Shown here piece by piece: positions 30,201 to 51,200 of a stretch of 64,000 nt of DNA (positions within the stretch are counted from its first letter, which is position 1; the number at the start of each line of letters is the position of its first letter). The notes under the pieces are model-generated. The model ran no database searches. It was not told the DNA's origin and was given only the letters and a program-made list of their open reading frames with translations. The stretch comes from Tubiluchus corallicola. Its lineage: Eukaryota; Animalia; Priapulida. A program made the translations under genes and the position numbers. The stretch covers positions 568,706-632,705 of the forward strand of contig JAQGDQ010000100.1 of assembly GCA_030141605.1 (NCBI GenBank), written 5' to 3'.

Positions 30201-33200
30201 ATTCGTATCATTAATGGTAAGAACCAGGAGTAAAACTTGTTAGGCGCCTGCGCCTGCGCCTGTGTCAGCACGTCCAATTGATTGAAAAAGGCAAAAACAA
30301 CATAGAGTATTAGCAATCTATGCAATTAAAAAATTGTGTAAGCAAGGATAAAGAAGTGTTGGGTAAAAGAATGTACAAGAAGAAGGAAATATCGATTTCG
30401 TAAGGTTCAGTTCAGTGAGGCTAGATTGTACAGAGAGTCAAAGAACACAATGACTGGTCACACAGGTACAATATTTCGTTATGGAGATCTGGTTAATATA
30501 ACCTGCAAGCAGATATTGTTTATATATATATATATATATATATATATATATATGTGTGTGTGTGTAAACAATATCTGCTTATATATATATATATATATAT
30601 ATCACCGCTTCAACTCGTCTGTTAAACAAACAATATATTTTTGCTGGTTATAGAAAACTGCAACTGAACAATGCCACAACAACAACAATTGCAAGAACAA
30701 AAATGACTGTTAAGAAGAATTAGCTGGACAAACAGCCACAAAAGCGATTGAAAAGATAATAATTGAAACATTCAACAGCAGCTGGATATGCAAACGACAA
30801 AAACTCCAGAAGATATTGAGACACACACATCGCAGTGCAAATTCTAGTAGTGACAGTGTTGCTCGTTTATTCACTCGTTCGCGGCATCACTCCGTTTGAA
30901 AATGAATAATTTTGAATTAACAGTATCAACGCAAGCTAAATAACTGGAATTGCCATTAAATTAGTTTGAATTATCATTATTTTAGAAAATGAAATTTAGA
31001 CTCATAATTACCAAATAGCGGTTGTATTTAGTTGCAGAAGTCTTTCTTTCTGAAGTTTTGATTTCGTTGCTTGTTCTTAGTTCATAGTTTATGTATCAGC
31101 AACTCTAATTTTCGAATCTAAATAAAGTTTGCGAAGTAGAAAAATTTAGGAGAACAAAGATCACTAGAAGATGGCATTAAGCCCAGCACTAGTATACCTA
31201 CATGATGTACGTATACGTATGTATAATTACTACGCTATACCTACAAGAATGCATTCAAGATCGCTAAAACTACAGTACAGCTACAAGTAAATCATCCTTT
31301 AAGTACTTTTGTCATCGTGAAAACTTGCAAGATTTGCTAGAGAACATGCAAGATGGTTTACTTACGCAGTGGAGATTTTCTCTTTTAACAGTGATGCTTC
31401 AGGAACAGCTATAGAATAGGGCTTTCTGCTGAACTCCTCCCCAACAGGCACAAATTCACAGTGATTTACAACAGCGTATTCTACTTGACTTGCACTGCCC
31501 ATAAGGATAAGGGTGCACACTCAAACAACCATGCGACAATATGTGCAACATTAGGCATAACTTCCAAATTGACACGCATAGATGCACACACGAACATAGT
31601 ATAGACTGTGCAGCCATATTTTGAACATTACTTTTCGTCGTGACACATGAACGTAGAGACCAAGTGCAGGATATCATGCTGTGCGAAGCCCTCGTTCACT
31701 TCCACCCTCCCAAACCCCGGCATTTCTAATCTGATTCTTTACCTTACTGTCTAAACTTGACCGTAATTTTAACCCAAACTTAAACGTAATTTTACAAAAT
31801 AGCCAATGAGGCCTTCTTGTGAATATTCTATCACACAAGTGTTCATTTAAATTATATCAGACCCGAAGCACATTGGTATGAACTGTACAAGTCGTCACAT
31901 AAGATAATGGAAATTAGGATTTTTGAAAGATCTAGTGTATTTTCAGGCCGTCTTTCTATTAAATTCGATCATAAACCTATTTTGATCATGCACATTCGGG
32001 ATTTTAGAAACTGTAAAATATACCTATCCCAAATGCCGGGTCAAATTCGTTAGCCTTCAAGTACTCATGTTGAATAAATATTAGTTTTCAAGATATGCAT
32101 GTGACCATAGATCTGTAACCCTTTGTTACAGCAGTTATAATGCCTGCCAAAGACAGGCGTCAAGACTCTCTGGATCAACATGACGTTTGAGGTTTAACGT
32201 TTTGACGTAACTATTTGACGTTTAAACCCTTGCAGTTTCAGCGTCATTATGCCATAAATAACATTTGAGTACGACTTTACTTCAACTATTCGACTATTAC
32301 AACTATGAAAGAATATGCAGCGTCTATTTTTGATATTTAATCTCTAAAACTGCTATTAATTATAATTTTCACCCAAATTTTGCCGATTTTTGTTGTCCAT
32401 TTTCGAGCAATTAACAGTCCCACTGTAGGGACTTCTGTGTGTCCTAATATTAGAAGTTATTGAGTTTCTGAAATTCCTTGATGATTGACTAATTAGTAAC
32501 CATAAATATTTCCAGTCTACGATCAACAGTTGTAGACAATGAACACTGGCAATCAGTAGTACATTCTACATACATAATATACTGACACTGACATCTATTG
32601 GATGGAGGAAGAAATTTTTAATACGAAGTTCGTACACGGTGATAATAACGCCTGAAGTGTGTGTATTTCATTTGGCAACGCAGTGACACTTTTTCATAAA
32701 TTATCATGTAGCCTTGTAGGGTTAAGATGTTAAGATTGTATGTATTTAATAATTTCAGGATGAATTTCCAACAGAAATAAATGCTTTTATACACATTGCA
32801 TTAATGCTGCATAATACGACACCATTATATAACATCGGCAAGAGTTTAAACATATACACACGCACGCACGCACCCACCTAACACACACACGCGCGCACAC
32901 ACACACATATATAATAATGACATTTAACGTTGAGGGTAGTGAGTTCCACAGTTTAGGCCCGCTTACAGCTAACGAAATGTTTCGCAATATTAGCTCTATA
33001 GTAACAGAGTTGGCAGTCATTCATTATATCTTGTATTATACGAGTTAATATAGAAATATACATGCTTAACATTGTTTCCAAACAGGCTACCGGAAGCCAG
33101 AGACCATCTTGAAAAATGGTAGCTATTTTGGAAAAACTAGATTGGAGACCATACTGAAGAACCAGAACTAAGTGTCAGCGTATTGTTAAACTTTAAAGAG

Positions 33201-48200: not shown

Positions 48201-51200
48201 CATGTAATTCATGTCTTTATGCATGCACGAGTGATTGCATTTGGTTGCGTGAATCACTTAAAGTGATCGTTTTCGAGTTTCGGCTGTACGCACCTCTAGC
48301 ACACGAAGAGTTCAGAGAAATGTAAGTTGGTCTGGATTCTGGACAAGTTGCCCCTTGTTGCTTGAGTGCCTACATTTCAGGAGACGCTACGAAGGTGGAC
48401 TGGGCTATGGTGACTAACTGTGATTTCATCATAGTAGGCAAAGAGTTTAGTAGAAAACCATTTGCCATAGCCGTAAGAGAAGGCTCACAGTTGAAGGAAA
48501 AGCTTTCTTCTGCGTAAGTACTATTAAACGTTGATGATGCAGTTGGTCGAACTTGAGTTAGATGGGAGAGAGCCTTTTTTGCTAGTGTATTGTGCATGTT
48601 ATTTTTTATTTATATGCATGCGAGCACGTTTTTTTTCGTGAAAACTGTATTAGTAAACAAAGCGTGCGTGCGTGCGTGCGTGCGTGCGTGCGTGCGTGCG
48701 CGCGTGCGTGTGTGTGTGTGTGTGTGTGTGTGTGTGTGTGTGTGTGTGTGTGTGTGTGTCTGTGTGTGTGTGCATGTAAGATAAAAACATACGCAAAACG
48801 TATAAATAATTGTGTATGTTTAAACTCTTGCCGATGTTATATAATGGTGTCGTGTTATGCAGCATTAATGCAATGTGTGTAAAAGCATTTCTTTCTGTTG
48901 GAAATTCATTATGAAATTATTAAATACATACAATCTTAACCCTACAAGGCTACATGAAAAAGTGTCACTGCGTTGCCAAATGAAATACACACACTTCCGG
49001 CGTTATTATCATCGTGTACGAACTTCGTATTAAAAATTTCTTCCTCCATCTAATAGACGTCAGTGTCAGTATATTATGTATGTAGAATGTACTACTGATT
49101 GCCAGTGTTCATTGTCTACAAATGTTGATCGTAGACTGGAAATATTTATAGTTACCAATTAGTCAATTATCAAGGAATTTCAGAAACTGAATAACTTCTA
49201 ATATTAGGACACACAGAAGTCCCTACAGTGGGATCGTTAATTGCTCGAAAATGGACAACAAAAATCTGCAAAATTTGGGTGAAAATTATAATTAATAGCA
49301 GTTTTAGAGGTTAAATATCAAAAATAGACACTGCATATTCTTTCATAGTTATAATACTCGAATAGTTGAAGTAAAGTCGCACTCAAACGTTATTTATGGC
49401 ATAATGACGCTGAAACTGCAAGGGTTTAAACGTCAAATAGTTACGTCAAAACGTTAAACCTCAAACGTTATGTTGAGGCAGAGAGTCTTGACGCCCTGTC
49501 TTTGGCAGGCATTATAACTGCTGTATCTAAGGGTTACAGATCTATGGTCACATGCATATCTTGAAAACTAATATTTATTCGACATGAGTACTTGAATGCT
49601 AACGAATTTGACCCGGCATTTGGGATAGGTATATTTTACAGTTTATAAAATCCCGAATGTGGATTATCAAAATAGGCTTATGATCAAATTTAATAGAAAG
49701 ACGGCCTGAAAATACACTAGATCTTTCAAAAATCCTAATTTCCATTATCTTATGTGACGACTTGTACAGTTCATACCAATGTGCTTCGGGTCTGATATAA
49801 TTTAAATGAACACTTGTGTGATAGAATATTCACAAGAAGGCCTCATTGGCTATTTTGTAAAATTACGTTTAAGTTTGGGTTGAAATTACGGTCAAGTTTA
49901 GACAGTAAGGTAGAGAATCAAATTAGAAATGCCGGGATTTGGGAGGGTCGAAGTGAACGAGGGCTTCGCACAGCATGATATCCTGCACTTGGTCTCTACG
50001 TTCATGTGTCACGACGAAAAGTTATGTTCAAAATATGGCTGCACAGTCTATACTATGTTCGTGTGTGCATCTATGCGTGTCAATTTGGAAGTTATGCCTA
50101 ATGTTGCACATATTGTCGCATGGTTGTTTGAGTGTGCACCCTTATCCTTATAGGCAGTGCAAGTCAAGTAGAATACGCTGTTGTAAATCACTGTGAATTT
50201 GTGCCTGTTGGGGAGGAGTTCAGCAGAAAGCCCTATTCTATAGCTGTTCCTGAAGCATCACTGTTAAAAGAGAAAATCTCCACTGCGTAAGTAAACCATC
50301 TTGCATGTTCTCTAGCAAATCTTGCAAGTTTTCACAATGACAAAAGTACTTAAAGGATGATTTACTTGTAGCTGTACTGTAGTTTTAGCGATCTTGAATG
50401 CATTCTTGTAGGTATAGCGTAGTAATTATACATACGTATACGTATATCATGTAGGTATACTAGTGCTGGGCTTAATGCCATCTTCTAATGATCTTTGTTC
50501 TCCTAAATTTTTCTACTTCGCAAACTTTATTTAGATTCGAAAATTAGAGTTGCTGATACATAAACTATGAACTAAGATCAAGCAACAAAACCAAAACTTC
50601 AGAAAGACTTCTGCAACTAAATACAACCGCTTATTTGGTAATTGTGAATCTAAATTACATTTTCCAAAATAATCATAATTCAAATTAATTTAATGGCAAT
50701 TCCAGTTATTTAGCTTGCGTTGATACTGTTAATTCAAAATTATTCATTTTCAAACGGAGTGATGCCGCGAACGAGTGAATAAACGAGCAACACTGTCACT
50801 ACTAGAATTTGCACTGCGATGTGTGTGTCTCAATATCTTCTGAAGTTTTTGTCGTTTGTATATCCAGCTGCTGTTGAATGTTTCAATTATTATCTTTTCA
50901 ATCGCTTTTGTGGCTGTTTGTCCAGCTAATTCTTCTTAACAGTCATTTTTGTTCTTGCAATTGTTGTTGTTGTGGCATTGTTCAGTTGCAGTTTTTTTCT
51001 TGCTCCCATATTTTGGTGGCACAATCTGATTGATCTGATCGAGCAGTACAAAATTATTACTGTGGAAAAAATGTTAGAATATTTAAGACTGAAACAAAAT
51101 GTCACAAAAACCAGCTACGAAATTATAGCAAGGGAATCGTTTAAAAATATTGCTCGAATAAAAAACACCAAAAAACGATTTTACATAAGTACGTACAACT

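Follow-up and report, generated by a model that had tools for sequence, protein, structure and literature searches.

A probable repair-type inverted copy of one of three alternative ligand-domain exons within the predicted IR25a gene of the priapulid Tubiluchus corallicola

More than 1,000 repair-mediated duplications have been described in human by Pace et al. 2009 (PMC2671141), among them a backward copy of ACSBG2 exon 7 in an intron of its own gene, with about 94% identity and, in the account given there, no sign of coding constraint. That source distinguishes a proximal class, with donors less than 5 kb away and lengths of at most 619 bp, from a distant class, whose donors lie more than 5 kb away and whose lengths reach 3,424 bp. 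Inverted sequences have also been described for what they do in RNA. The repeat pair of TBXT lies 1.4 kb apart, and inverted intronic pairs have been linked to exon skipping (PMC10901737); captured Alu duplexes are enriched at short distance, with interactions beyond 1 kb also seen, and inverted intronic repeats are again associated with exon skipping (PMC13019944). In human Alu pairs, editing declines with distance on a scale of about 800 bp and is weaker between gene segments (PMC4066801). Here we analyse 64,000 nucleotides of the priapulid Tubiluchus corallicola (GenBank assembly GCA_030141605.1, contig JAQGDQ010000100.1, positions 568,706 to 632,705 of the forward strand; this whole stretch is called the window), in which the predicted gene of the co-receptor IR25a carries within its intron 1 an inverted 2.2-kb copy of the region of its own exon 14c. 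A neutral, repair-type templated copy, like the one of human ACSBG2 exon 7, is probably the best reading of this arrangement.

The elements on which the argument leans are the following.

30654..32858, minus strand: arm A, the inverted copy of the exon 14c region, inside IR25a intron 1 (27336-34889), placed by self-BLASTN and with its junctions found in contigs of sequencing runs
48811..50995, plus strand: arm B, the source segment, made of 1,343 bp of upstream intron, exon 14c and 709 bp of downstream intron
31366..31498, minus strand: antisense copy of exon 14c, 133/133 identical to 50154-50286, donor kept

Self-BLASTN of the window aligns 30654-32858 with the reverse complement of 48811-50995 over 2207 columns at 96.33% identity (E = 0), and in the self-comparison these arms are the sole long non-simple inverted repeat. 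Re-alignment of arm A with arm B counts 57 mismatches (37 transitions and 20 transversions) and 5 indels, so that the coordinates and the description given in the initial annotation, a 2.2-kb inverted duplicate with single-nucleotide differences and small indels, are correct. The same annotation had reported an identical exon copy whose acceptor had changed from AG to GG, and this is what the assembly letters hold, with GG at 31500 and AG at 50152 in the source; the change rests on the assembly and is listed in no sequencing run, because the site falls in contigs retaining source-type letters only. The spacing between the arms is 15,952 bp and contains, by the exon model, exons 2 to 14b, as had been proposed from a rougher figure of about 16 kb. 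Both arms fall within one predicted pre-mRNA and are complementary, again as first described, with 27 perfect runs of at least 21 bases that amount to 1,805 nt, the longest being of 195 bp.

Raw data bear on whether the copy is real. Six sequencing runs were found, four of which contain the stretch: X1-X3, from one sample (S1), and X4, from a sample (S2) of another study, all of them DNA only. X1-X3 are possibly the data behind the assembly, and X5 and X6 contain next to none of the stretch. What was compared are assembled contigs on 48776-52600 (arm B plus unique flank), 30 of 66 pieces being displayed; contig depth is a poor measure of copy number, and it is the junctions that carry the argument, with depth in support. 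One X1 contig exits arm B at 50995 into the left flank of arm A with 0 mismatches in 30 letters, and the exit at 48811 into the right flank of arm A is present in X1 (11 letters) and in X4 (1 mismatch in 30). Inside the arm there are 37 alternative letters, 5 being other variants and 32 being letters of arm A, which means that 32 of the 57 inter-arm substitutions are recovered in the runs. X4 has one contig with nine A-type letters, another that bridges arm B's own junction, and letters absent from X1-X3 when the runs are compared. The copy is therefore genuine, with two loci and no assembly error, and both arms are present in two samples.

The initial annotation had considered the misplacement of an allelic haplotype a real alternative, and this is refuted. 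If the copy were an assembly artefact, the misplaced other allele of the source, shared sequence would stand at 1x and each type at 0.5x of the flank depth. In X1, the deepest run, unique flank has a depth of 175, six A-type branches a mean of 171 (0.98 of flank) and six B-type branches 175 (1.00); shared stretches there reach 2.1-2.4x flank depth once collapsed branches are corrected. Across X1-X3, source-type depth is about 1x flank in all three and shared sequence 1.4-2.4x. Since this is unlike the depth of a misplaced allele, and contigs pass from the arm into the flanks of the copy precisely at its two ends, in a second sample and study too, we consider an artefact extremely unlikely. An additional third haplotype in X1, at depth 72 (about half depth), also speaks against it. 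On the other side stand the possible identity of X1-X3 with the assembly's own source data and the depth of A-type branches in the shallow runs X2 and X3, which reaches about 0.5-0.65 of that of B-type branches (about 13 against 25 when pooled; p = 0.07 for equal depth, provided that depth is a count of molecules). That ratio would fit one A per two B; the deep run X1 makes it likely that the copy is homozygous in S1. Two loose ends of X4 contigs in the unique flank have no counterpart in the window (10-11 mismatches in 30 letters) and were set aside, together with two others which we take to be library adapters.

How the copy arose may be read from its junctions, where two further elements are found.

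30507..30602, no strand assigned: 16-bp inverted repeat around (TA)n(TG)n, with another TA run after it; a candidate fragile site some 50 bp to the left of the insertion
32859..32910, no strand assigned: (CACG)n/(CA)n microsatellite at the right junction of the copy

A short A-rich overlap marks the left junction, and the right one runs into the CA-type repeat; both are suggestive of the microhomology, filler or deletion that repair would leave at breakpoints. At the source arm a (GT)n/(GCGT)n run ends about 35 bp past its end. The copy ends in plain intron, away from exon borders, includes 2 kb of intron and has its donor 16 kb away on the same chromosome. The inverted repeat just left of it could also suggest that the segment was moved by a transposon, through capture of the Helitron or Pack type, with a passive copy as the outcome all the same; such an inverted repeat is also a feature of small non-autonomous elements, and intron-bearing gene fragments are typical transposon cargo. 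We hold this to be very unlikely. No target-site duplication was found at the ends of the copy (the longest shared word is a simple repeat of 6 nt), no poly(A) tail, transposon ends or bracketing terminal repeats at either end, and no repeat family, given that depth in the run contigs gives two loci only. A source 16 kb off on the same chromosome fits instead the copying from nearby sequence seen in repair (PMC2671141). In this sense, the locus resembles the duplications of Pace et al. (PMC2671141) as a DNA-level copy with a same-chromosome donor and neither poly(A) nor transposon ends; with 2.2 kb of length and 16 kb of distance it falls outside their proximal class, whose donors are mostly within 5 kb, and matches the distant one. 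It differs from ACSBG2, a human case in the same source, in belonging to an invertebrate and in that the copied exon is a predicted mutually exclusive cassette.

A neutral repair copy could have come about as follows. A break beside the TA-rich palindrome in intron 1 would have been patched by synthesis from a template 16-20 kb downstream, with joins at the short A-rich overlap on the left and at the CA-repeat on the right. As the copy is antisense and adds no sense exon, it would have been tolerated and would have spread. It would then have drifted to its present divergence, its patchy identity being due to chance, to selection on the original exon and perhaps to gene conversion, and would persist as a neutral passenger.

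The gene that hosts both arms has the following predicted parts.

27257..52539, plus strand: IR25a gene from start to stop codon, made of 16 constitutive exons and a single cassette out of three for exon 14, with GT-AG introns
27257..27335, plus strand: predicted exon 1, coding part, signal-peptide-like and ending in phase 1, placed by frame and look only
34890..35051, plus strand: exon 2, whose acceptor closes intron 1 and would be the back-splice acceptor
44654..44853, plus strand: exon 13, the last constitutive exon ahead of the cassettes, ending in phase 1
46201..46333, plus strand: exon 14a, 133 bp, acidic residue kept, best match for 84/106 homologues
48381..48513, plus strand: exon 14b, 133 bp, acidic residue kept, best match for 22/106 homologues
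50154..50286, plus strand: exon 14c, 133 bp, with Ser at a position that is D/E in homologues
51432..51498, plus strand: exon 15, the first constitutive exon past the cassettes

Judged by its best matches and domains, the host gene is IR25a, with ligand-gated channel and ligand-binding domains. A search with exon 12 returned 532 proteins, and the 120 listed are 72-80% identical, with informative names that are mostly IR25a or nematode glr-7, the IR25a proteins matching at 74-80%; Pfam gave hits in two of the six exons scanned, PF00060 in exon 12 and PF10613 in exon 9. The predicted product has 969 aa, its frame stays open with any single cassette, and over its full length it shares 43-47% identity with the 12 best of the compared proteins. 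Exon 1 is the least certain exon of the model. Exon 6, searched against 1.84 billion representatives, gave 2 marginal matches, to a cadherin-like repeat protein and to a repetitive frame, that we judged spurious. Croset et al. 2010 (PMC2924276) found representatives of the IR25a group in every protostome that they examined.

The three versions of exon 14 stand in tandem and are homologous, equal in length and in phase. They are predicted to be mutually exclusive by reading frame, because any inclusion other than that of one cassette breaks it: in the frame test ab, ac, bc, abc and none each led to a premature stop. Pairwise DNA identity is 60-62%, with a proportion of synonymous differences (pS) of 0.70-0.95, near saturation, and of nonsynonymous ones (pN) of 0.24-0.32, which are conserved; the cassettes are old duplicates retained as coding sequence under purifying selection. 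Asp is encoded by the first full codon of 14a and 14b, Ser by that of 14c. Among the 106 of 120 fetched proteins that cover the region, this position is D in 103 and E in 3, and in the alignment it coincides with the Glu of the GluK1 motif LMEST, which binds the amino group of the ligand. Exon 14c, which departs from homologues at four further near-invariant positions, is therefore the unusual cassette, with Ser replacing an acidic residue of the ligand pocket. A protein search with exon 14c gave no match at E <= 10 among 3 candidates, which is weak evidence. Splice-site scores of all three cassettes are within the constitutive range of a matrix built from the gene's own 15 acceptors and 15 donors, which discriminates poorly, since 71 acceptor-like sites in arm A pass it.

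We found no convincing docking/selector pairs among the cassettes and their introns, where helices of 11-19 bp only, assessed without a shuffle control, were present, and no match to Rfam at gathering score in 26000-54000 of the window. Several other features of the gene were observed. At 46611-46674, which is 277 bp downstream of exon 14a, a perfect 28-bp hairpin (G-U counted; -42 kcal/mol) may represent either a splicing structure or a small element. In X4 a deletion of 19 bp is found at 50009, 145 bp upstream of the exon 14c acceptor, and may belong to arm A or to arm B; X4 also shares with X3 an A>G change in exon 15 (51491) that replaces Asn by Ser. The IR25a transcript contains a second inverted pair, 28277-28535 in intron 1 and 43720-44047 in intron 12, of about 250 bp and up to 97% identity; it consists of a compound (ATCT)n(ATCC)n microsatellite and its reverse complement, simple repeats that possibly pair by chance. 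Intron 10 has an imperfect palindrome of 343 bp (41050-41392), 82% self-complementary, with unique arms and a TA-rich core, similar to a miniature inverted-repeat transposable element or a fold-back, and intron 12 has about six tandem copies of a 52-bp unit at 44184-44514, 89-94% alike.

The arms have diverged at 57 of 2183 positions (2.6%). Between the window and S2 (X4) the unique flank has 3 substitutions in about 1,512 bp, or 0.2%, a rough value as contigs drop variants, and the copy would therefore be about tenfold as old as the observed differences between alleles; it is probably fixed or common. Selection for pairing on the sense strand would raise G-U over A-C changes, and the transitions give 17 and 20 of them, respectively (p = 0.74), with no bias to changes that keep the duplex and thus no sign of such selection. 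An identical exon copy has P = 0.03 if both copies drift. If only the copy is free to change, 1.8 differences are expected (P = 0.16; P = 0.13 for the exon +/-100 bp), so the identity of the exon is within chance if the original is taken to be under selection. An end tract of 310 bp that is free of exon is equally clean, with 2 differences, which points to conversion or to rate patchiness and not to exon-specific selection. Neither the strong/weak mutation asymmetry between the arms (27 vs 19, p = 0.30) nor the dispersion of differences in 200-bp bins (p = 0.17) was significant.

The main alternative is that the copy works as a built-in antisense: a lingering intron 1 would pair with exon 14c and both of its splice sites, lower the serine-pocket isoform, and might draw ADAR editing or favour a predicted circle of exons 2-13 plus one cassette, 2,326 nt by the exon model. 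We regard this as unlikely, while recognizing that several observations favour it. The in silico duplex of exon 14c +/-100 nt with its copy, at -627 kcal/mol, would span the whole exon and both splice sites; the identity of the arms peaks around the exon; and other mutually exclusive clusters are controlled through RNA pairing (PMC4691838). The two reports on Alu and TBXT pairs associate inverted intronic repeats with exon skipping (PMC13019944, PMC10901737), and first introns are at least 50% slower to splice in flies (PMC5762160). On the opposite side, there is no G-U bias, the identity of the exon is accounted for without selection on the copy, and 2 kb of copied intron would be superfluous to such a role. 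The exon copy and exon 14c are 18.7 kb and 12 introns apart, against 1.4 kb in TBXT (PMC10901737), and captured duplexes favour short distance (PMC13019944). Silencing of 14c, ADAR editing, endo-siRNAs and back-splicing had been suggested in the initial annotation as possible effects of the duplex, and none of these functions gains support from the sequence. No report of an inverted intronic duplication acting as antisense was found in the literature searched (titles and starts of abstracts, largely without subscription journals).

Timing would also limit such pairing. Arm B starts 13.9 kb past the end of intron 1, and flies show an elongation of 1.5 kb/min and intron half-lives whose median is 2 min (PMC5762160). 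At fly rates, transcripts that keep intron 1 would be about 3-4% with a half-life of 2 min, 9-12% with 3 min and 24-28% with 5 min. Intron 1 is thus predicted to be mostly gone before its partner arm is transcribed, because 16 kb separate the arms, which belong to different introns. The duplex would be thermodynamically feasible and kinetically handicapped, and by the distance and timing data published for other animals pairing over 16 kb and a dozen introns would be a minority event. Under a neutral repair copy, duplex formation would be confined to the minority of transcripts with intron 1 still attached about 9-10 min after its 3' end is made; by-products may include some editing or a small amount of circular RNA, with isoform ratios little changed.

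Some points weigh against a neutral repair copy and have to be set beside it. The repair signatures were taken from the junctions alone, the empty site not having been seen. Differences between the arms are unevenly spread, the cleanest window of about 420 bp lying around the exon with 2 events (scan p = 0.02), and this tract has P = 0.04 under change of the copy only, for a window picked post hoc. Both ends of the copy persist intact in two samples. All rates and distance rules come from flies and humans, other species than this one, and a half-life of 10 min would leave intron 1 on about half of the transcripts. The distance rule of Alu pairs may not transfer either, because a 2.2-kb duplex of 96% far exceeds an Alu pair. 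Also, the paper that ties such pairs to skipping, at far shorter range, describes an inverted insertion of 220 bp that arose by accident in an intron of mouse Tbxt (PMC10901737). A mixed origin, in which a repair accident made a full-length antisense to the exon without the acidic residue, and pairing over 16-20 kb while intron 1 lingers biases the co-receptor isoform, is in our opinion a rather long shot; if true, the splicing speed of the first intron would set chemosensory isoform choice.

At the DNA level, the arms may matter in another way. Crossover between them would invert exons 2-14b and turn the gene off, with a predicted product of 238 aa from exons 1-14c-15-16-17 (exon model), or gene conversion could move the GG acceptor into the real exon and thereby put 14c out of use in certain alleles or cells. 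The geometry permits inversion by crossover, and arms of 2.2 kb that are 96% identical, with perfect runs of as much as 195 bp, are a plausible substrate for recombination; the patchy identity could be conversion, and one X1 source haplotype appears, in our reading of the depths, to share the copy-type letter at 49058. Widely spaced inverted repeats can, moreover, interact in single-stranded DNA in yeast (PMC10164571). Against this, no joints are reported in the run contigs, though short contigs cannot phase a 2.2-kb arm, the divergence of 2.6% implies that exchange is rare, and there is no evident recombinase site or programmed mechanism. Losing a co-receptor found throughout protostomes would be expected to be harmful. 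The chance that these DNA-level events explain the arrangement is accordingly very slim indeed.

Exon-intron editing-complementary sequences, as at the AMPA-receptor R/G site, are among the known RNA-pairing systems, and their known guides are short, close and conserved. The arms share with inverted Alu pairs edited by ADAR a long imperfect duplex with A-C mismatches, here including an exon of a gene of the ionotropic receptor family; editing of those pairs drops within about 800 bp and between gene segments (PMC4066801). With the AluY/AluSx1 pair of TBXT (PMC10901737) and the genome-wide Alu duplexes (PMC13019944) they have in common that two parts of one pre-mRNA are complementary and could thereby affect splicing. 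In those systems the exon sits in the loop between close repeats, 1.4 kb apart in TBXT; here it sits inside one arm, and the predicted loop has 16 kb with 12 other exons and two cassettes. The docking/selector clusters of serpent and Dscam (PMC4691838) are alike in their tandem frame-incompatible exons, whose choice could depend on RNA pairing. Their elements are short, conserved and competing, unlike the single, young, 2.2-kb full antisense copy found here.

The surroundings of IR25a in the window contain other putative genes. On the minus strand, 54083-58153 is an uninterrupted frame of 1,357 codons, convergent on IR25a, with a signal-peptide-like start and, by eye, the look of a long leucine-rich-repeat protein. 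Upstream of IR25a, exons at about 13900-18030 (plus strand) presumably belong to a class C G-protein-coupled receptor (GABA-B-like), and an exon at 182-421 (minus strand), at the start of the window, is presumably alkaline-phosphatase-like, both by motif.

Under the reading that we favour, the duplication would be a further local repair copy through which a gene comes to contain one of its own exons backwards, in this case confirmed by raw data and in an invertebrate. The arms also offer a clean natural test of the ability of a complementary pair, very long and nearly perfect, to act over 16 kb and a dozen introns. We found no report of alternative or mutually exclusive ligand-domain exons in IR25a in the literature searched, which largely excludes subscription journals, and the term 'alternative splic' does not occur in Croset et al. 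(PMC2924276). The host gene is the same co-receptor described there, and in Tubiluchus corallicola it would have three alternative ligand-domain exons, one of them without the acidic residue. That IR25a, a co-receptor across protostomes, appears to have such a choice of exons may matter more than the duplication itself.

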